Assembly: GCF_030684315.1 (NCBI RefSeq)
Contig: NC_081369.1
Location: 6,357,763 to 6,421,762 of the forward strand
Direction of reading: 5' to 3'
Origin: Stegostoma tigrinum
Lineage: Eukaryota
Length of the DNA: 64,000 bases
Part shown: piece after piece, positions 9,555 to 60,186 of the stretch
Position numbering within the stretch: position 1 is the stretch's first letter
Layout: each line of letters begins with the position of its first letter
The notes under the pieces: model-generated
Databases searched by the model: none
Told to the model about the DNA's origin: nothing
What the model saw: only the letters and a program-made list of their open reading frames with translations
Position numbers and translations under genes: made by a program

Positions 9555-9699
9555 CTTCCTGGGAGTTTTGATATAAAGGTGATACAGCCACTTCAAGACG
9601 GCAATTCTTGTCATCATCCCTGTGACTGTGTCATGAAGATGCCGATCAAGCACCAGCACGATTCCATCCAAGTTAAGGGCTTCCTGAGAATGATCGATC
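9555..9699 (-). CDS. VAC14: VAC14 coding exon 11, 145 nt
   Basis: (T)[48 protein letters not shown]; CAG acceptor, AAG|GTAAG donor. Confidence 0.95.
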
Positions 9700-11270
9700 C
9701 TGCATAAGTAATAAGCAACTTTATCAATGATTATTACTACAAAGGTAAGAGGTGGGTTTAAAAAAAATCCACTGCAAACTACAAGGACTTGTGCCATATC
9801 AAACAAAGACTACCTGATAGAAAGCATTACCATGAAAGAAAACTTTAACAAAACTCAGATGGAATGTCCTACTCAAATGGAGTGCAAAGTGATTCAGACT
9901 GCACCATACTGAGGAGGGTGATAGCACTGAACTGAATACCACTGCAAGATTACAAAAACGTAGCTGTTTCTGGCTGGAGATTAATAGTTTAAAAATTTAT
10001 TTCACAAGACATTACCATTGCTGGCCAGGGTAGCATTTCTGACTCACCCTAACTGCCTTTGAGAAGGTGGTGGTGAGCTGTCGCCTTGAACTACTGCAGT
10101 CCTCGGGTGGCTCTACAATGCTGAGGGGAAGGGAATTTCAGGATTTTGATGTGGTGACAGTGAAGCAACAGCAATATAGTTCCCAGAACAGACACAGCAT
10201 GGTTGGACGCCACGTGTAGACGGTAGTATTCCTGTGGGTCTCTCCACTTTCATGTATGGCTGGTGCTGCTTCTGGTGTGCCCTCCTGTACTCAACATTGA
10301 TCAGGATAAAGTCCCCCAGCTTTATGGTAATAATAGAGCCGGGGATACACTGGGCCATAAGGTTACAGATTGTGGGTCAATATAATTTTACTACCACTGA
10401 TGACCCATAGCATCTTATGGCTGCTCAAAAGTAAACTGCTAGATCCATTTGAAATCTTAACACACGACATAATGGAGGGTATCTTCAATGCAAAGGTGGG
10501 ACTGTCTCCCTAAGAACTGTGGAGGTGGTCACCCCTACTGATACTATCATGGACAGATGCAACTGTGGCAGGTACGTTGATGGGGATGCAGTCAAGTGTG
10601 TCTTAACCTCTTGTTTCTTCTCTCGCCACCTACTGCAGACTCAGTCCAGCAGCTAGATCCTTCAGGACACAGTCAGTTAGTCTTGATGACTGACACTGAA
10701 AAGTCTGTCATTCAGAGCACATTTTGTCTCCAGGTGAATATCAGCGCATCTGCCAAAAAGTGTTCAACATAGCTGATCACTAATTTATCAAAGAATGTGG
10801 TAATCAGCAAGAGGTTTCCTTGCACCCTTGATGCCAAGAGACCTCTCAGGGTGTGGAATCAACACTGAGGACCCTCAGGACAACTCCTTCCTGCCACTGT
10901 CTCCTCTGGTGTGTCTTTTCTGCCCATCTAGCATGGTGGTGCCTGGGGCAAACTCAAGGAGTCGTATCTTACAAAAAAACATTTGGTCTGTACTTAGGTC
11001 AACACTAGGTGATCCACCTAGTTTCATTCTTTGTTGTCTTTTCTGTAGCAGTTTGGTGCAACACAGTGAGCCGTTTCAAAGGCTGTAAAGAATCAATCAC
11101 CTTGTCGTGAGTGTGGAGTCACCCTGGCATCGCATGTGAGGGTGACAGATTTCCATGTTGAAGAGCATTTAGTGAACCAGATTGGTTTTTATGACAACCG
11201 ATGATATTTCTCAGCGGCATTATTGAGACCAGCTTCTAAATCCAGACTTTTTTTTGTTAATGGAATTTTG

Positions 11271-12696
11271 AGGATAGCAAATGTGGTTCCCCTGTTCAAG
11301 AAGGGGAGTAGAGACAACCCTGGTCATTATAGACCAGTGAGCCTTACCTCAGTTGTTGGTGAAGTTTTGGAAAAGGTTACAAGGGATAGAATTTATAATC
11401 ATCTAGAAAAGAATAAATTGATTAGGGATAGTCAGCATGGTTTTGTGAAGGGAAGGTTGTGCCTCACAAACCTTATTGAGTTCTTAGAGAAGGTGACCTA
11501 ACAGGTAGATGAGAGTAAACCGATTGATGTGGTGTATATGGATTTCAGCAAGGCGTTCGATAAGGTTCCCCACAATAGGCTATTGTACAAAATGCAGAGG
11601 AATGGAATTGTAGGAGATATAGCAGTTTGGATCGGAAGTTGGCTTGCTGAAAGAAGACAGAGGGTGGTAGTTGATGGGAAATGTTCATCCTGGAGACCAG
11701 TTACTAGTGGTGTATCACAAGGGTCGGTGTTGGGTCTACTGCTGTTTGTCATTTTTATAAATGACCTGGATGAGGATGTAGAAGGATGGGTTAGTAAATT
11801 TGCAGACGACACTAAGGTCGGTGGAGTTGTGGATAGTGATGAAGGGTGCTGTAGGTTGCAGAGAGACATAGATAAGCTGCAGGGCTGGGCTGGCAGGCGG
11901 CAAATGGAGTTTAATACAGACAAGTGTGAGGTGATGCACTTTGGTAGGAGTAACCAGAAGGCAAAGTACAGGGCTAATGGTAAGATTCTTAGCAGTGTAG
12001 ATGAGCAGAGAGATCTCGGTGTCCATGTACACAGATCCTTGAAAGTTGCCACCAAGGTTGACAGGGTTGTTAAGGAGGCATACAGTGTTTTAGGTTTTGT
12101 TAATAGAGGGATCGAGTTCCAGAACCAAGAGGTTATGCTGCAGCTGTACAAAACTCTGGTGCAGCCACACTTGGAGTAGTGCGTACAGTTCTGGTCACCG
12201 CATTATAAAGGAGGATGTGGAAGCTTTGGAAAGGGTGCAGAGGAGATTTACTAGGATGTTGCCTGGTATGGAGGGAAGGTCTTACGAGGAAAGGCTGAGG
12301 GACTTGAGGCTGTTTTCATTAGCGAGAAGAAGGTTGAGAGGTGACTTAATTGAGACATATAAAATAATCAAAGGGTTAGATAGGGTGGATAGGGAGAGCC
12401 TTTTTCCTAGGATGGTGATGGCGAGCACGAGGGGGCATAGCTTTAAATTGAGGGGTGAAAGATATAGGACAGATGTCAGAGGTAGTTTCTTTACTCAGAG
12501 AGTAGTAAGGGAATGGAACGCTTTGCCTGCAACGGTAGTAGATTCGCCAACTTTAGGTACATTTAAGTCGTCATTGGACAAGCATATGGACGTACGTGGA
12601 ATAGCGTAGGTTTGATGGGCTTGAGATCGGTATGAAAGGTCAGCACAACATCGAGGGCCAAAGGGCCTGTACTGTGCTGTAATGTTCTATGTTCTA
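11271..12696 (+). mobile_element. Young 5'-truncated CR1 LINE (RT and C-terminus)
   Basis: ORFs 11223-11501, 11529-12179 and 12097-12609 give PLFKKG..YRPVSLTS, QHGF, DFSKAFDKVPH, QGSVLG, FADDTK; only two stops and one frameshift; ends in (tgttcta)n. Confidence 0.95.
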
Positions 12697-20960: not shown

Positions 20961-23729
20961 GAAGTTTGATGGCCTTTGATCCCAAAATAGTAGCAGCAAG
21001 GTAAATGCATGTATTGTTGACACACCCTCCAATAAATGTCAACTAGCCCAAAGCTGCTTCCTGCATCCTATCCGGTATTAAAACCAATTTGCCCATCATC
21101 TCCACTTTTAGTCCAAGCTTACATTTGCATCCTCCATTCCAAACCCCTCAATGCCTCTGCCCTCCTGATCTCTAAGCTCTCCTGAGGCCCTACAACCCTG
21201 AGATACGCTCCAATCTTGTTTTTATCCTTCAGCACCTTCCCCTACTACTATTGGACATACATTCTAGGTCTTGTGCTCTGGAATTCCCTTTCTAAACTTT
21301 CTGCTTTCCCCTCCAGCTTGGAGACCAAACTTCAAACTTCACTCTTTCACTCAGCACTCCTAACAGTGTGGGCCAACACTTACATTTGTTCAAATCAGCT
21401 TCTGCTGCACCATGGAAACGTTTCTCAATCAAGAGACTTTATGAATATAGTGTCATATTACTAATACCAGAGCAGCAAATTAAATAAACAACGATGGCTT
21501 TTAAATGTTAGACAATAGCACAGTCTGAGTGAAGATGATGTATGACACTTCTTTACTGGAGGTGATAAGAATGCTCACAGTTAGAGAGGATGATTGCCCA
21601 CGGGAATGCTAAAGAAAATTCAAACAGACAATTCCCAGCCAAGACGAAAGAGATTGCAAAACTGCCAGCAACAGTCACCAAGTTTCCAAATGGCACCACC
21701 TTTCCTGGTTTGCAGAGTGCATAGTTAAAATTACCACTCGTGCCTCCCTATGATCACAACCTATAGGAAATCATCCTACGGTACAATTATAGACTTAGTC
21801 TTTCAAAGTCAAAGCTATACCTGGAGAGAACACTTGAAATAGTTTCATGCTGCTGGCTACAGATCTGTCAGAGATGGATGCAATCTAACACGATAGGTTA
21901 AGTATCATCTATCACTGAAGTGAATTAATTGGAGTACGGTGCTTTCCAAGATGTATTGGCACCGATAAACCTAGTGACAGCACAATACAGGAACTAGATT
22001 AACTATCATTCTATTAAATTCACAACAGTAATTCCGGGTCACATTTGAAATTTCAAGGATGACAGGCCCGATTGGGCAAAAAGTACAACCTTGTCATTTC
22101 TGTTGGCAGGCAACCCTTTTATCCAAACCTAGCGCAACACCTACCATCACACATTACATAAATCTTGACAACTTCTGTCAACAGCATGTTCACAATCTTC
22201 AAGTAGGAAGAGAGTTTGTTGGCACGACTGCAAAAGATAAAAGCTGCAGGTATTCACGCTTGCATTCTTTTCAAGCTATTTGGAAGCTTTGGGGCATGTA
22301 CTTTAGCAAACAAAATCAAAGATCATGGAGGACAGGAAAAAGATTTCAAAGAACTGCAATACAAAGTACATTTCCTCTGCTGCCCCTCAACCCAGAAAAG
22401 AGGTCCGACTGAGATTAGAACAAGCCCTCCTGAAATTGTTCTAGTGTCACTAGTCAGACCTAGTGTTGACTACAGAATAGTCCTGAGGTTGTTCCACACA
22501 AGAATCTTCCCTCTCGTGATATGGAGAGTAGTATTTTCTACTGATTAGGATCTGGAGCACACTGCTTGAAAATGTGGTGGAAACAGATTCAAGAACGACT
22601 TGCACGTGTGCATGAGACAGTTTTCTGAAGGGAGAAATACAGGGCCGGGGGAAAAGGGCTGGGAAGTAGGACTAACCGATTTGTCCTGTGGACAGACAAC
22701 ATGAACACTGGGTCGAAAGGCCACCTTCCAAACTAGGAGCAGGGTAAACCATTCAGTCCCATGGACCTGCTTTGCCATTCATCAAAATTGTGGTTAATTA
22801 ATAGTAACCTCCACTCTTCATTCCTACAAAACTCCATGGCTAGTTACAAATCTACCTACCTTTGCCTTAAAAATATCCTCAAAAAAAAACACTCATAGGG
22901 CAGCTGCAGCATGGGATTAGTACAAACCATTGCCTAGGACACTTCAGATTAGCCTCTCACCCAGACTGTTGACAGCACCAGCTTCTGACTGTCATGACAG
23001 TCTCGACTGTAACATTACAGTGCAGCTTCAGCATGAAGGCCACATGTGGTGAGGATGGCCTGAAAAGCAAAGATACCACTACCCAAAATCGTGGATCTAT
23101 GTTTTATGAATCTGCAGAGAAACAAAATGGCCTAGAATTCAAAGTATCAGAGATTGAGTCATTTCTTCACACTTCCCCCATTCATAGACAGTCCTCCACA
23201 AGGTCACCTTGAAGGCTTCCCTTTACGATGGAAAGAGCTCATTACTTGCTTTCCTCCAGGTATTATGGATCTGTTTTAATGGTGAGGTTGCCAGCCCTCA
23301 ATGTGGGGACTGGAGTAGCAGGCACTCACCCCGACTCCAATTTCCTTCCAAGCCCGAGCCAGAAGGTCATTGGCAGATGCCCATGAGTGGACTTTGTAGC
23401 ATGGTTCGCTAAGGTGGTGACCCAGGATGGAGAATCCAATTGGCTTTCTCCCCTCTGCACCTTCCCCTATCTGGCTACTACAGAAAGGGAAATTGGAATC
23501 CCAAATGCCCCTCTTGTGAGGCTAGCTAAGTACAGCATGCAAAAACTATTGAAGGCGGCATGCTCTGGTCCACACAGCGTGGTTTAATACACAGCTGTCT
23601 GGCACAGTACCTGCTGACTCCCTGTTCTCTGAATTTGTGCTGAAGACATTTTACACATTTTCTGTGCTTGAAATTCTCCTAAGCTCGAGAACCGAAAAGG
23701 CCAGCCTAAGAAATGGGAAGAGTAAGTAG

Positions 23730-23906
23730 CTTTAATGTATGTGCTGAGATAATAAAATGTGAGGCTGGATGAACACAGCAGGCCAAGCAGCATCTTGTGT
23801 GTGCTCCTGAGATGCTGCTTGGCCTGCTGTGTTCATCCAGCCTCACATTTTATTATCGTGGAATTCTCCAGCATCTGCAGTTCCCATTATCTTTAATGTA
23901 TGTGCT
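23730..23906. mobile_element. Palindromic Penelope-derived mini-element (family A) with 16-bp TSD
   Basis: ctttaatgtatgtgct at 23730-23745 and 23891-23906; perfect ~47-bp inverted arms 23748-23795 / 23810-23856. Confidence 0.9.
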
Positions 23907-25561: not shown

Positions 25562-25990
25562 TGGACTGGGGTAGATGAAATCGGAAATCACAATACCATG
25601 TTACGGTCCAACAGGAACAAAAACAAAGTTGCTGGAAAAGCTCAGCAGGTCTGGCAGCATTTATGAAGGAGAAAACAGAGTTGACCCAGAAAGGGTCACC
25701 GGAACTGAAACATGAACTGTTTTCTCCTTCACAGATGCTGGAAGACTGGCTGAGCTTCACCGGCAACTTTGTTTTTGTTCCTGATTTGCAGCATCCGCAG
25801 TTCTTTTGGTTTTTATGGTCCAACAGATTTATTTGAAATCACAAGCTTTCTGAGAGCTGCCCCTTTGTCAGGTGAAGTGACATCAGATTTCACCTGGGGA
25901 AGGAGCATCACTCCAAAAGCTCATGATTTTAAATAAACCTGTTGGGATTATAGTCTGGTGTTGTGTGACTTCTGATTCTGTCCAATCTTG
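25562..25990. mobile_element. Penelope-derived palindrome (family C) with a family-B palindrome nested in its left arm
   Basis: Inner element flanked by ttacggtccaacag / ttatggtccaacag; outer arms tccaacagatttatttgaaatcacaagcttt / aaagctcatgattttaaataaacctgttgg with two decayed inverted hammerhead-like cores at 25845-25922. Confidence 0.7.
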
Positions 25991-26267
25991 TCACCATATT
26001 CCTAGTGCTCTGGTATTAAACATTGTTATATTGGACTCTGGTATCTTCCCCACTAATGCTGTCAGGGTAACAGCTATAATTCAGTTTTCTCTTTACCTCC
26101 TTTTTTTTGAAAGAAATAGTGGGTATATATTTGTAACAAAGCCGACAAACTGTTCCAGAATCTATAGAATCTTGAAAGGTGACCACCGATGCATCTACTA
26201 TTTCCAGGGCCACTACTTTGAGTATTTGGGGATGTAGATTGATTATCAGGCCTTTCTTAGATTTAAA

Positions 26268-27820
26268 GACCAAAACAAAAGTTGCTGGAAAAGCTTAGCA
26301 GGTCTGGCAGCATCGGCGAACAGAAATTAGTTAACGTTTCGGGTTTGGCAACCCTTCCTCAGAACTAATGGCAGTTAGGAACATGCTTGTTTATGGGCAT
26401 AAGGTAGGTTGTGGGGAGGGGGGTTAAGGAGTAAACAATAAGTGGCGACAGAAAGAAGAACAGTCGGACAGACAAGGGATTCAATAATGATCTGGCTTGG
26501 AGAGTGAATAGTTCTTAATGGGGACTGTTAGTCTGCCGTTACACACACCTACTGTTAGTCACTATGTGATAACAAGGCTTGGCATGATGGGTTAAGGGCA
26601 GGGACATGGGAGTGTTTAGGCCCTAAAATTATGGAACTCTATATTGAGGGCTGTATAGCCCCCAAGTAGAAAATGAAGTGTTGTTCTTCCAGTTTTGCTG
26701 AGACAGAGATGTTGGCCAAGGTGGTATGTTAAAGTGGCAGGCAACTGGAAGGTCAGGTCTTTGATGTGAGCAGAACATAGGTGCTCTGCAAAGCAGTCAC
26801 CTAGTCTATGCTTCGTTTCCCCCCACGTAGAGGAGATCACATTTTGAGCAACAAATGCAGTATAGTAGATTCTGGGAAGTGCAGGTGAAGTGCTGCTTCA
26901 GATGGAAGGTACGTTTGGGCCCGCGGATAGTGGGAAGGGAATCGGTAAATGGACAGATTACACCTTCACTGATTGTAGGGGGAGGTGCCGGTGCCGGTGG
27001 ATGGTGATGGTTGGGCGGTGTGGGAGCTGTTGGGAGTGAAGGAACAGTGGACCAGGGTGTCCCAGTGGGAATAGTCCTTGCAGAAGGCGGATAAGGGAGA
27101 AGAGGGGAGTATGTGTCTGGTGGGGTGGCATCTCACTGGAGGTGCAGAAATGGGTCTGATGATCTTCTGGATGTGGATGCTGGTGTGGTGGTAGGAAAGG
27201 GAAAGGGGAACCCTATCGCTGTTGTGGGAGGGAAAGGAGGGGGTGAGGGTGGAAGTGTAGGAGACAGGTTGGTCCTGGTTGAGAGCCCTGTCAACAAGGG
27301 TGCTGGGAAATCAGTTGAGGAATAAGATGAATATTTCAGAGGGTCCCTTGAAGTTGGTGTCAGCAGAATATACGCAGTGGAGACGGAGGAATAGGAGAAT
27401 GAAATGGAGTCTTTAGAGGAAGCAGGGTGTGAGGATGGGTAGTCCAGATAGCTGTGGGAGTTGATGAGTTTATAGAGGATACTAGTGGCCAGTTTATCCC
27501 CAGAAATGGAAAGAGATGTCGAGAAAGGGAAGGGAGGGATCAGAGATAGACCAGGTGAAAGTGAGGGCAGGGTGGAAATGGGAAGTGACACTGATGAACG
27601 GTCCTAATTTTGGACAGGACAGGGATGCAGCACCGATGATATCATCAGTATATCAGAAAGAAAAAAAAAAATTGAGAATAGGGCCCAGAATAGGACTGGA
27701 ACAAGGAATACTCCATGTACCCCACAAAGAGAGGGGCATAACTGGGGCCCATGCGGATACCCATGGCCACCCCTTTAATGTGAAAGAGAATGAGAGGAGT
27801 TAAAAGAGAAGTTGCTAAAT
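26268..27820 (-). mobile_element. Penelope-like element (family B): decayed RT + GIY-YIG + terminal repeat
   Basis: GETKHRLGDCFAEHL (GIY-YIG, ORF 26616-26840); KGVAMGIRMGPSYA (RT, ~27730-27775); NSHSYLDYPSSHP (ORF 27133-27591). Confidence 0.88.
26326..26369 (-). ncRNA. Minimal type I hammerhead ribozyme, structurally complete
   Basis: Minus strand AUUAGUU-CUGAGGA-A-GGGUU-GCCA-AACCC-GAAA-CG-UU-AACUAAU: full core, 7-bp stem I, 5-bp stem II, palindromic loopless stem III, GUU cleavage triplet. Confidence 0.8.
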
Positions 27821-29902: not shown

Positions 29903-32576
29903 TGTAGACAATAGGTGCCGGAGTAGGCAATTCGGCTCTTTGAGCCAGCACCACCATTCATTTTGATCATGGCTGATCATCCACAATCAGTATCCTGTTC
30001 CTGCCTTATCCCCATAACCCTTGATTCCACTGTCTTTAAGCGCTCTATCCACCTCTTTCTTGGAAGTATCCAGAGACTTGACCTCCACTGCCTTCTAGGG
30101 CAGAGCATTCCATATATCCACGACTCTCTGGGTGACGAAGTTTTTTCTCAACTCTGTTCTAAATGGCCTACTCCTTATTTTTAAACTGTGCCCTCTGGTT
30201 CTGGACTCCCCCATCAGCAGAAACATGCGTCCTGCCTCCAGAGTGTCCAATCCCTTAATAATCTTATACATCTCAATCAGATCCCCTCATCCTTCTAAAC
30301 TCAAGAGTATAGAAGTCCAGTCGCTCCAATCTTTCAACATATGATAGTCCCACCGTTCTGGGACTTGACCTCGTGAACCTATGCTGCACTCCCTCAATGG
30401 CAAGAATGTCCTTCCTCAAATTTGGAGACCAAAACTGCACACAATACTCCAGATGTGGTCTCACCACAGCCCTGTATAGCTGCAGAAGGACCTCTATGCT
30501 CCTATACTCAATTCCTCTTGTTATGAAGGCCAGCATGCCATTAGCTTTCTTCACTGCCTGCTGTACCTGCATGCTTGCGTTCATTGACTGATGTACAAGA
30601 ATACCTAGATCTCGTTGTACTTCCCCTTTACCTAACTTGACTCCATTTAGATAATAATCTGCCTTCCTGATCTTGCCAAAGTAGATAACCACAAATTTAT
30701 CCACATTAAACTGCATCTGCCATGCATCCGTCCACTCAGCTAGACTGTCCAAGTCATCCTGTATTCTCATAACATCCTCCTCACATTTCACACTGTCATC
30801 CAGCTTTGTGTCATCAGCAAATTTGCTAATATTACTTTTAATGCCTTCGTCTATATCATTAATGTATATTGCAAACAGCTGCGGTCCCAGCACCGAACCT
30901 TGTGGTACCCCACTGGTCACCATCTGCCATTCGTAAAGGGACCCGTTTATCACTACTCTTTGCATCCTGTCAGCCAGACAATTTTCAATCCAAGCCAGTA
31001 GTTTGCTCCCAATACCATGTGCCCTAATTTTGTTCTATGTGGGACTTTATCAAAGACTTTCTGAAAGACCAGGTACACTACATCCACTGGTTCTTCCTTG
31101 TCCATCTTCATGGGTACATCCTCAAAAAATTCCAGAAGATTAGTCAAGCACGATTTCCCCTTCATAAATCCATGCTGACTCTGACCTATCCTGTTACTGC
31201 TATCCAAATGAGTTGTAGTTTCATCTTTTATAATTGACTCCAGCATCTTTCCCACCACTGACATCAGGCTAACAGGTCTGTAATTTCCTGTTTTCTCTCT
31301 CCCTCCTTTGAAACGTGGGACAACATTAGCTACCCTCCAATCTGCAGGAACTGATCCTGAATCTATAGAACATTGGAAAATGATTACCAATGCGTCCACG
31401 ATTTCTCGAGCCACCTCCTTAGGTACCCTGGGATGCAGGCCATCAGGTCCCGGGGACTTATCAGCCTTCAGACCCAACAGTCTATCCAACACCATTTCCT
31501 GCCTAATATAAATACCCTTCAGTTCGTCCATTACCCTCGGTCCTTCAGCCACTACTGCATCTGGGAGATTGGATCTGTCTTCCCTAGGGAAGACAGATCC
31601 AAAGTACCGATTTATCCCTTCTGCCATTTCCTTGTTCCCCATAATAAATTCACCCTTTTCTGTCCTCAAGGGCCCAATTTTAGTCTTAACCTTTTTTTTT
31701 CTTTTCACATACCTAAAAAAGCTTTTACTATCCTCCTTTATATTTTTGGCCAGTTTGCCCTCGTACCTCATTTTTTCTGTGTATTGCCTTTTTAATAATC
31801 TTCTCTTGCTCTTTAAAAGCTTCCCAGTCCTCCGGCTTCCCGCTCATCTTTGCTATGTTATACTTCTTCTCCTTTATCTTTATACAGTCCTTAACTTCCC
31901 TCGTCAGCCCCGGCCGCCCCTGCCTCCCCTTAGGATCTTTCTTCCTCTTTGGAATGAACTGATCCTGCACCTTCTGCATTATATCCAGAAATACCTGCCA
32001 CTGTTGTTCCACTGCCATCCCTGCTCGGGTATTGAACCATTGAACTTTGGCCAGCTCCTCCCTCATAGCTCCATAGTTCCCTTTGTTCAACTGCAATACT
32101 GACACTTCCGATTCTCCCTTCTCCCCCTCAAACTGCAGATTAAAACTTATCATATTATGGTCACTACCTCCTAATGGCTCATTTACTTTGAGGTCCCTGA
32201 CCAAATCCGGTTCATTGCACAACACCAGATCCAGAATTGCCTCCTCCCTGGTAGGCTCCAGTACAAGCTGTTCTAAGAATCCACCTCAGAGGCACTCCAC
32301 AAACTCCCTTTCTTGGGGTCCAGTACCATCCTGATTCTCCCAGTCTACCCGCATGTTGAAATCTCCCATAACAACAGTAGTGATACCTTTGTGACAGGCC
32401 AATTTCAACTCCTGATTTCAACTTGCACCCTACATCCTGACTGTTTGGGGGCCTGTAGATAACTCCCATTAGGGTCTTTCTACCCTTAGACTTTCTCAGC
32501 TCTATCCATACTGACTCTACATCTCCTGACTCTATGTCCCCCCTCGCAAGGGACTGAATATCATTCCTCACCAACG
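29903..32576 (-). mobile_element. Young CR1 LINE, most of ORF2 (APE endonuclease + RT), frameshifted
   Basis: ORFs 32212-32688 (ESVWIEL..GVIYRPPN), 31728-32225 (LGGSDHN), 30953-31771 (KSPGPDGLHP, YRPVSL, QHGF), 30273-30965 (GVPQGSVLGP, FADDTK). Confidence 0.95.
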
Positions 32577-32924
32577 CAATCTTTTGTGGAGGTGTATGGT
32601 GGTCGTTTTGGCATTTGCAACATACACTCAAGTGAAATGCAATACCTTTGTTGGTCCATAGTAGGATATCAGCCCAAACTCGAGTCACATATCATCCCAG
32701 CCAGAAGCTGGATATCAACAGAGGCTCCTGCAATCAAGTCCCTAAATATTACACGTTTAAACCACCAATTCTCTCGCCTAGTACCATCTCTCCACTACAG
32801 AAGTTCCTTAAGTGCAAGAGAGAAAGAAAGGGAGACAGTGCACACAAGGGAAACACCACACATGCAAGAAAGAAAATGAGCAACAGCCTATCCACTAAAC
32901 TGTCACACACAACTAAGCAAGATA

Positions 32925-39776: not shown

Positions 39777-39926
39777 GATCAGAGGAGCTCTTGGGGTTTG
39801 AGAAGGACTCATCAGCAGTGCCATCTAGCTGCTGCAGCATGAACTGTCGGATATTGTCACCATCATCCTCCGGCATAATCAGCTTCATCAGAGTCTGGTT
39901 ACACACGTTTGCTACCTCCTTAATAC
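39777..39926 (-). CDS. VAC14: VAC14 coding exon 9, 150 nt
   Basis: (S)IKEVANVCNQTLMKLIMPEDDGDNIRQFMLQQLDGTADESFSNPKSSSD; conserved N-terminal half then a divergent linker; C|GTAAGT donor (phase 1). Confidence 0.95.
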
Positions 39927-43585: not shown

Positions 43586-43613
43586 GACGTTTCGGGCCTA
43601 GACCCTTCATCAG
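43586..43613 (-). ncRNA. Hammerhead ribozyme core in Penelope terminal repeat (sense to VAC14)
   Basis: CTGATGA-A-GGGT-CTAG-GCCC-GAAA-CGTC; core intact but local stem I is only 2 bp. Confidence 0.6.
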
Positions 43614-45595
43614 AGGGGGATGGGGAGAGGGTTCTGGTATAAATAGGGAGAGAGGGGGGAGGCAGACCGAAGATGGAGAGAAAAGATGATAGGTGGAGAG
43701 GAGAGTATAGGTGGGGAGGTAGGGAGGGGATAGGTCAGTCCAGGGAAGACGGACAGGTCAAGGAGGTTGGATGAGGTTAGTAGGTAGGAAATGGAGGTGT
43801 GGCCTGGGGTGGGAGGAAGGGATGGGTGAGAGGAAGAACAGGTTAGGGAGGCAGAGACAGGCTGGGCTGGTTTAGGGATGCGGTGGGGAAAGGGGAGATT
43901 TTGAAGCTAGTGAAGTCCACATTGATACCATTGGGCTGCAGGGTTCCCAAGCGGAATATGAGTTGCCGCTCCTGCAACCTTCAGGTGGTATCATTGTGGC
44001 ACTGCAGGAGGCCCACGATGGACATGTCGTCTAAAGAATGGGAGGGGGAGTTAAAATGGTTCATGACTGGGAGGTGCAGTTGTTTATTGCGAACCGAGCG
44101 GAGGTGTTCTGCAAAGCGGTCCCCAAGCCTCCGCTTGGTTTCCCCAATGTACAGGAAGCCACACCAGGTACAATGGATACAATATACCACATTAAGCAGA
44201 TGTTCACCTGCACATCTGCCAATGTGGAATGTCATCTTGGGGCCTGGGAGGTGGTGTGGGGCAAGTGTAGCACTTCCTGCGGTTGCAGGGGAAAGTGCCG
44301 AGTGTGGTGGGGTTGGAGGGGAGTGTGGAGTGAACAAGGGAGTCACGGAGAGAGTGGTCTCTCCGGAAGGCAGACAAGGGTGCGGATGGAAAAATGTCTT
44401 GCGTGGTGGGGTCGGATTGTGGATGGCGGAAGTGTCGGAGGATGATGCGTTGTATCCGGAGGTTGGTGGGATGGTGTGTGAGAACGAGGGGGATCCTCTT
44501 TGGGCGGTTGTGGTGGGGGCAGGGTGTGAGGGAGGTGTTGCGGGGAATGCAGGAGACGCGGTCAAGGGCGTTCTCAACCACTCGGGGCGGGGGGGGGGTG
44601 GGGGGGGGGGGTGCAGTTGCGGTCCTTGAAAAACTGGGGCATCTGGGATGTGCGGGAGTGGAATGCCTCATCCTGGGAGCAGATGCAGTGGAGGCAGAGG
44701 AATTGGGAATAGAGGATAGAATTTTTGCAGGACGGTGGGTGGGAGGAGGTGTATTCTAGGTAGCTGTGGGAGTCAGTGGGCTTGAAATGGACATCAGTTT
44801 CTAACTGGTTACCTGAGATGGAGACTGAGAGGTCCAGGAAGGTGAGGGATGTGTTGGAGATGGCCCAAGTGAACTTCAGGTTGGGGTGGAAGGTGTTGGA
44901 GACGTGGATGAACTGTCCGAGCTCCTCTGGGGAGCAAGAGGCGGCGCCAATAGAGTCATCAGTGTAACAGAGGGAGAGGTGGGGTTTTAGGCCTATGTAG
45001 GTGCGGAAGAGGGACTGTTCCACGTAACCCTCAAAGAGGCAGGCATAGCTTGGGCCCATGCGGGTACCCATGGCCACCCCCTTTGTATGTAGGAAGTGGG
45101 AGGAATCGAAAGAGAAGTTGAGGGTGAGGACGAGTTCGGCTAGGCGGTTGAGTGTGTTGGTGGAGGGGGACTGGTTGGGTCTGTGGAACAGGAAGAAACG
45201 GAGGGCCTTGAGGCCATCTGCATGAGGAATACAGGTGTATAGGGACTGGACATCCATGGTGAAAATGGAGGTGTTGGGGGCCAGGGAATTGGAAGTTCTG
45301 GAGGAGATGGAGGGCGTGGGTGGTGTCACGGACATAGGTAGGGAGTTCCTGTCTCCACCTCCCTAGCCTGTGCTTCCTCTCACCCATCCCTTCCTCCCAC
45401 CTCAAGCCGCATCTCCATCTCCTACCTACTAACCTCATCCCACCTCCTTGACCTGTCTGTCTTCCCTGGACTGACCTATCCCCTCCCTACCTCCCCACCT
45501 ATACTCTCCTCTCCACCTATCTTCTTTTCTTTCCATCTTCGGTCCGCCTCCCTCCTCTCCCTATTTATTCCAGAACCCTCTCCCCCTCCCCTTCT

Positions 45596-45623
45596 CTGAT
45601 GAAGGGTCTAGGCCCGAAACGTC
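45596..45623 (+). ncRNA. Hammerhead ribozyme core in the inverted terminal repeat
   Basis: ctgatgaagggtctaggcccgaaacgtc, identical to the 43586-43613 copy but on the opposite strand. Confidence 0.6.
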
Positions 45624-51540: not shown

Positions 51541-52038
51541 AGCCATCTTTGTCTGACATGTTATGTACCCATGAGGTCAGAGTTAACTCTAATATCGATT
51601 GAAGAATTAAAACATGCTGAAATAAGTACTCTGATCAAGGTTTCTAGTCAAAACTCCATGAATCTACTGTATTGAAATTTGATCTCAATTTCTGCATCTT
51701 GCCCCTTTCCCCTTAAAGGCATTCATTAACCAGTGTGTTGCTCCACTTAGATGAATTTGGTTTTAATCAACCTATAATGGTGTTGAACATTTCTGACTGC
51801 AACTCAACATTAGAATTGACTTTGATCAATTGCATTTGAGAGTTCGTAGTAACTATTACAGGTAGCATTGGGAGATGTCAACACTGTACCAGAGCTGTGG
51901 CTTCTTAATGCTGAACATCTAAGATACGTATGCTTCAAAGAGGTTTGGTAGCTCACATCTGGACGAACACACCATTTCCGAAGTTTAGGAAAACAAACAC
52001 CATCAATAAACCACAATGTGCAAAACACCCACACTCAC

Positions 52039-52924: not shown

Positions 52925-53092
52925 CAGAAATAAAAACAAATTGCTGGAAAAGGACAGGTCTGGCAGCATGTATGGAGAGAAAGCCCTACTTCAAAACAGA
53001 AGGGTCACTGAACCTGAAGTGTTAACTCTGCTTCCCCTTCACAGACGCTGCCAACCTGCTGTGCTTTTCCAGTAATTTAAAATTTTCAGCAT
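52925..53092. mobile_element. Family B palindromic mini-element, decayed
   Basis: ttgctggaaaagg..caggtctggcagc / gctgccaacctgctgtgcttttccag inverted arms. Confidence 0.65.
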
Positions 53093-59963: not shown

Positions 59964-60186
59964 GACAGCAGGTAATCAGAGATACAAAGTATGGCGCTGG
60001 ACGAACACAGCAGGCCAAGCAGCATCTCAGGAACACAAAAGCTGACGTTTCGGGTCTAGATTTCGGATGAAGGGTCCAGGCCCGAAACGTCAGCTTTTGT
60101 GCTCTTAAGATGCTGCTTGGCCTGCTGTGTTCATCCAGCTCCTCCAGCAGTTGCAGTTCCCATAATCTCTGACAGCAGGTAGTCAG
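59964..60186. mobile_element. Family A palindromic mini-element with two opposed hammerhead remnants, 16-bp TSD
   Basis: gacagcaggtaatcag (59964-59979) / gacagcaggtagtcag (60171-60186); gctgacgtttcgggtctaga..cggatgaagggtccaggcccgaaacgtcagc centre. Confidence 0.88.

Follow-up and report, generated by a model that had tools for sequence, protein, structure and literature searches.

The window analysed here is a stretch of 64,000 nt from the genome of Stegostoma tigrinum, and the VAC14 gene runs along its minus strand (Table 1). Exons were placed by homology, through homologs labelled VAC14 by their sources. Between the exon end at 39777 and the exon start at 9699 lies a hammerhead motif, close to one end of a decayed Penelope-like element (PLE). 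Since the minus-strand exon map flanks it on both sides, the motif is intronic and in the sense orientation, as the original prediction had held. That prediction also gave the intron the number 9 and a length of 24 kb, and these two points stand less firmly. The downstream boundary would be set by a candidate 55-nt exon (15698-15644, minus strand) chosen by splice signals and reading phase only; the splice signals are strong, similarity to tetrapod homologs is slight, and the segment ranks fifth of 45 candidates by protein similarity. With this exon the intron would measure 24,078 nt. It is probably VAC14 intron 9, on a count in which two further exons presumably lie upstream of the window. 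Searched against the PDB, a VAC14 exon matched generic HEAT repeats only.

Table 1. Features of the VAC14 locus and of the Penelope-like element in its intron. Positions are those of the window.
Feature	Positions	Strand	Basis and remarks
VAC14 exons	63155-62988, 55416-55354, 52742-52629, ~52150-52038	minus	homology
VAC14 exons	42732-42622, 41380-41240, ~39927-39777, 9699-9552	minus	homology
VAC14 intron holding the element	15699-39776	minus	upstream exon end 39777 by homology and GT donor; downstream exon putative
Penelope-like element of "family B", its 5' truncation falling within the reverse transcriptase part	26268-27814	minus	homology to genome copies
Decayed reverse transcriptase/GIY-YIG coding remnant	26560-27814	minus	7-13 stops in each frame; tblastn
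Minimal type I hammerhead	26326-26369	minus	sequence, RNAfold, structural scan; anatomy as in the min-HHR described in PMC4209133
Hammerhead stem I arms	26369-26363 and 26332-26326	minus	
Hammerhead inner parts: CUGAGGA core, extra A before G10.1, 5-bp stem II, 4-nt loop		minus	
Hammerhead 3' parts: GAAA, loopless palindromic ACGU, U17	predicted cut 26333/26332	minus	
Damaged TATA-like box CATAAA	26390-26395	minus	sequence; family majority TATAAA; putative promoter role
Initiator-like element	26363-26368	minus	A at 26366 is the putative RNA start; most genomic copies have their 5' end there
Family-A hammerhead core, proposed partner	43586-43613	minus	2-bp stem I; separate element, in the earlier VAC14 intron bounded by the exons at 52038 and 42732

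The minus-strand letters first reported for 26369 to 26326 agree exactly with the window sequence, and the complete core, the 7-bp stem I, the 5-bp stem II and the loopless ACGU are all present, whether judged by sequence, by structural scan or by RNAfold. Every element of the PLE minimal type I hammerhead was found: a CUGANGA core, GAAA, UH, the G10.1-C11.1 pair, one extra base before stem II, stems I and II, and a stem III consisting of a palindrome only. When both strands of the whole window were scanned allowing at most one core mismatch and asking for a stem II of at least 4 bp and a contiguous stem I of at least 5 bp, 26326-26369 was the sole site to pass. RNAfold returns the 7-bp and 5-bp stems with an unremarkable energy (z = -0.89). 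The cleavage position was derived from the core numbering. Rfam covariance models, proposed in the original prediction as a check, yielded no hammerhead family over the whole window at the gathering threshold or over 22000-47000 at E≤10, a result that fits a motif lacking stem III. The only Rfam matches were weak miRNA-type hairpins on fold-back repeats. Fold-back (head-to-head) pLTR insertions of both families occur at 25612-25783, 23743-23890, 52925-53085 and 59975-60140, and the first two are the source of the weak miRNA-like matches or of long inverted repeats.

The element that carries the motif is 1.55 kb long. Genome copies align with it from 27814 down to 26268-26269, about 60 nt past the predicted cut site, and its best paralogs are 77-82% identical. 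The heavy decay of the Penelope reading frame, claimed from the outset, is borne out by the stops in every frame and by the 5' truncation (Table 1). With changes of frame, the element body can be aligned to stop-free reading frames at other loci (tblastn, E down to 2e-40), two of which match Pfam GIY-YIG with E values of 1.6e-4 and 6.4e-4, slightly below the curated cut-off. A Pfam search with the window's own element pieces gave no match, and a related family-A frame inside the window gave a weak RVT_1 match. The hammerhead can be placed in the terminal repeat of an element with reverse transcriptase and GIY-YIG at the level of the PLE class. No second hammerhead-like match was found between 26250 and 28000; the insertion holds one hammerhead and no tandem pLTR, and it lacks the tandem repeat with at least two complete hammerheads that marks a non-LTR retrozyme. 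Altogether, the motif is a minimal hammerhead of the known PLE class (PMC4209133, PMC8557442, PMC6155905, PMC7761336, PMC6765202), located in the pLTR of a Penelope-like remnant. Anatomy, homology of the host element and the exon map thus uphold the original identification: a minimal type I hammerhead of Penelope type whose palindromic stem III has no loop, borne by a decayed element and lying in sense orientation to VAC14.

Elsewhere in the window, long and partly frameshifted reading frames occupy 11205-12609 (plus strand) and 30273-32691 (minus strand); we take them to be remnants of LINE reverse transcriptase and endonuclease.

The 5' ends of the family copies bear on how these elements were transcribed. 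In the family majority, the 4-bp stem I begins 29 nt downstream of TATAAA; family A carries a TA-rich box about as far upstream. Thirty copies were chosen by their downstream flank alone, three pairs of them being the two arms of one fold-back insertion; the start lies at most 6 nt upstream of CUGA in 18, within the motif in 9, near the cut site in 1 and farther upstream in 2. In a related organism, 134-140 contigs per run stop matching at 26366 (three runs, two samples). These positions suggest that the hammerhead stands at the start of the pLTR transcript. They also suggest that insertions come from uncut RNA, since most family-B copies examined begin at the first bases of stem I and not at the cut site. 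A bacterial promoter scan, of a type unsuited to this kind of promoter, found nothing. Putative TATA and initiator elements are described in pLTRs of rotifer elements (PMC3846280), and an internal promoter without TATA in Drosophila Penelope (PMC2377424).

Is the window copy able to cut? On structural grounds, a monomer cannot be expected to close stem III, only a C and a G lying between A15.1 and U16.1, in line with what PMC4209133 describes for such motifs. In a double hammerhead, each core would use the cut site and 3' arm of the other copy. The original prediction named the family-A core at 43586-43613 as a partner on the same transcript. This proposal fails: that core lies in a different intron, three exons upstream of the motif, and its 5' arm pairs over 1 bp with the motif's 3' arm, so that it is unable to form stem I for a cut at 26333. 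A heterodimer cutting there was accordingly rejected. The reverse pairing gives 4 bp and could cut the partner's site only, 17 kb and three exons away. Two family-A copies in the window, at 43586-43613 (minus strand) and 45596-45623 (plus strand), retain core, stem II and ACGU intact, their stem I measuring 2 bp. Four further sense-strand remnants were detected in the intron of the motif, none with both an intact core and ACGU.

There remains pairing of the motif with itself. Computed energies are -19.9 kcal/mol for a double-hammerhead homodimer, -21.8 for a pair of monomers and -24.2 for a dimer of non-catalytic form; they leave aside tertiary and protein contacts. It can be argued that the copy still cuts at a low level with no benefit to the host, helped by a living PLE protein or by a second transcript of the same site, while splicing mostly proceeds. 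All core bases and the ACGU are intact, the strand-swapped homodimer keeps both 7-bp stems at about 2 kcal/mol above two monomers, and younger copies of the family exist (236 exact 41-nt matches). In its favour, too, assisted cleavage has been shown for an Anolis PLE hammerhead, which by the account in PMC11167929 cuts only with the element's protein; however, the same account states that this protein depends on RNA from the beginning of its ORF, and the window copy ends shortly past its cut site. It also reports that no RNA-seq reads ended at the Anolis site. The helper protein is hypothetical here. A dimer of two rare pre-mRNA molecules would be disfavoured by concentration, and the probability of stem I in longer context varies from 0.03 to 0.72. 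In the systems described, the schistosome minimal motif shows no cleavage as a monomer and low cleavage as dimers (Cervera and de la Pena 2014, PMC4209133), and Xenopus retrozyme dimers cleaved in one case of nine (bioRxiv 10.64898/2026.07.22.740005). We consider low-level cutting improbable.

The intactness of the motif in so decayed a host was the chief reason for supposing that it had been specially retained. The claim that all other family-B copies in the window have core mutations holds for the remnants examined, which are all core-broken or coreless. Genome-wide, 3,111 matches to the family pattern of core, stem II and ACGU were found, about one intact-core copy per 1 Mb, and none to a reversed-pattern control. 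The motif is thus far above random expectation and not above the expectation for its repeat family. A long 5' arm is present as well in 438 matches; among the 30 first-listed, 22 have an intact UH, a 5-bp stem II and a stem I of at least 4 bp, and three old-type long copies are intact at 17-22% upstream divergence, vs 23% by the same measure for the window copy. The 31-nt flank has 15,268 genome matches, giving a ratio of intact motif to intact flank of 0.20, inside a neutral range of 0.13-0.41 that is wide and was computed for three assumed ages. Against the family majority, the motif has changed at 5 of 38 non-CpG sites and the flanks at 22 of 142 (Fisher p = 1.0; low power with 38 sites): the motif drifted as fast as its flanks. 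By comparison with other copies, it is therefore no more conserved than the flanking element, the finding that the original prediction had named as its own refutation, and the thousands of intact copies likewise lend no support to special retention.

A reading in which selection kept the hammerhead as an intronic ribozyme, tuning VAC14 splicing or RNA level as in amniotes, can still draw on the rarity of the individual outcome. In simulation, the chance that one copy stays intact at 15.5% flank divergence is about 0.2%, and given six substitutions in the motif the chance of intactness is 0.19%. Both core CpGs are kept in the window copy, each surviving in 6 of 29 paralogs picked by similarity to it. 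The copy further carries two C-G to U-A double changes (one in stem I, one in stem II) together with a bulge deletion, a combination absent from the other copies examined; these genome samples are first-listed matches and non-random. The compensated pairs, the longer stem I, the sense orientation and the precedent of domesticated hammerheads in RECK and other genes (PMC6155905) all speak for selection. Against it stand a substitution rate no lower than in the flanks, thousands of equally intact copies including the old-type ones of similar divergence, the lack of a stem III that a monomer could form, the mismatched partner in another intron and the missing Rfam match. In so large a family, extremes of this kind will be picked up when many windows are scanned. 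We judge selection for such a role very unlikely.

The changes in the stems have ordinary counterparts in the family. The family-majority stem I comprises 4 bp, a 2-nt bulge and 3 further bp, and many long copies retain the 4 bp only. Two family-B subtypes can be told apart in this respect, one retaining the distal stem I pairs after the bulge and one with the 4-bp stem only. In the window copy, a 2-nt deletion removing the bulge gives rise to the 7-bp stem. The "perfect 7-bp stem I" of the original prediction is therefore present and not ancestral, the family stem I being of 4 bp and the deletion recurrent. The same deletion occurs in 2 of the 29 paralogs and in 37 genome matches with an intact 3' half; of these, 30 were examined, window copy included, and four (three besides the window copy) combine an intact core with an uninterrupted stem I of at least 7 bp. 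As for stem II, the U-A double change was found in 6 copies, vs about 13 expected from single changes, whose numbers (6 and 7) were counted by eye in the first 100 matches listed for the core pattern. There is no excess of compensation in stem II. A separate subfamily marked by compensated pairs was considered and dismissed: two candidate sets, of 3,962 and 7,795, offered no close sibling in the 40 top-scoring members of each, and the stem II double change is common to only those 6 copies. We hold it very unlikely that the locus represents an early stage of domestication, in which the bulge loss and the two compensated pairs were selected and VAC14 pre-mRNA is cut as a trans-dimer or with the help of a protein. 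If true, this would show a Penelope minimal hammerhead becoming a host intronic regulator in a cartilaginous fish.

Directly after the hammerhead (26314-26332, minus strand), the family-B majority carries a pyrimidine tract and CAG, resembling a 3' splice site, and then ATG. In the window copy, the AG is lost (CCG) and the deletion creates a branch-point-like ACUAAU.

Sequence from other individuals was of limited reach. At 86% likeness, contigs of the same and of a related organism amounted to about 21,000-22,000 records per run, mostly paralogs, which swamp the motif. At the orthologous site, a contig of the related organism covers 25924-26174, outside the motif, with 13 other letters over about 250 bases.

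In anatomy, the motif is like the min-HHR of metazoan PLE pLTRs (PMC4209133), whose hosts named in that paper include bony fishes, coelacanth, Xenopus and reptiles, whereas the present host is a shark. Our literature search found no report of PLE hammerheads in sharks, and the supplements of PMC4209133 and of the 2026 preprint may list shark elements. The schistosome min-HHR described in PMC4209133 has a stem II of 7-8 bp, vs 5 bp here, and the 7-bp stem I of the window copy is a derived trait. Poseidon-Ac of Anolis carolinensis is likewise a vertebrate PLE whose pLTR hammerhead is limited to stems I and II, and unprocessed RNA is given as its main insertion substrate (PMC11167929), which fits the present copies starting upstream of the cut site. 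Poseidon-Ac, however, is active and encodes the cleavage-assisting protein, whereas the ORF of the window copy is broken and truncated. Non-LTR retrozymes also carry a type I hammerhead related to that of PLE pLTRs, and they are reported in one chondrichthyan (bioRxiv 10.64898/2026.07.22.740005, PMC7761336). As described there, they are tandem non-coding repeats with at least two hammerheads, whereas the window motif is single and sits at the end of a coding-element remnant. With the intronic hammerheads of amniotes (RECK and others; PMC6155905, PMC7761336), the motif shares the type I fold, a position on the sense strand of an intron and, as those sources would have it, descent from a retroelement. 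The amniote motifs are conserved across birds and mammals and drawn with tertiary contacts in the same sources; the window motif, in contrast, is still within a recognisable high-copy element, is without stem III, matches no Rfam model and, set against its neutral neighbours among genome copies, shows no drop in rate.

We thus hold, with considerable confidence, that the motif is an inert leftover of a dead Penelope-like copy in a VAC14 intron, surviving by chance and performing no useful cutting of VAC14 RNA. About 3,100 similar copies in the genome look intact, so that this one is most likely idle and not a gene regulator. The ancestral element would have begun its RNA at the first base of the 4-bp stem I, from a TATA/initiator promoter in the pLTR, and its loopless ACGU would have needed a second hammerhead or the help of the protein encoded by the element to form stem III. 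RNA that had escaped cutting would have been the template for most insertions. In the window copy, the 2-nt bulge may have disappeared after insertion, with transitions arising that by chance preserve base pairing. The 7-bp stem I so formed is predicted to shift the balance towards the folded monomer; as this monomer is predicted to lack stem III, it would be inactive.

The sister family is far larger. Family A has 97,142 exact core matches genome-wide, one per 33 kb, and its stem I is of 2 bp in 11 of the 12 copies examined. In a VAC14 intron, two opposed family-A Penelope-like copies provide 212-nt inverted arms (43650-43861 and 45348-45559; 93% complementary, 1.5 kb apart) that would form double-stranded RNA in the pre-mRNA.

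For the biology of VAC14 the present locus matters little, being one of thousands of like motifs, and the facts at the level of the family are the more useful. Were the motif conserved and active, it would connect the hammerheads of transposons with the conserved intronic ones of amniotes. One genome contains about 100,000 core-intact hammerhead motifs, and if these cut pre-mRNA, intact copies would be expected to be depleted on the sense strands of introns.
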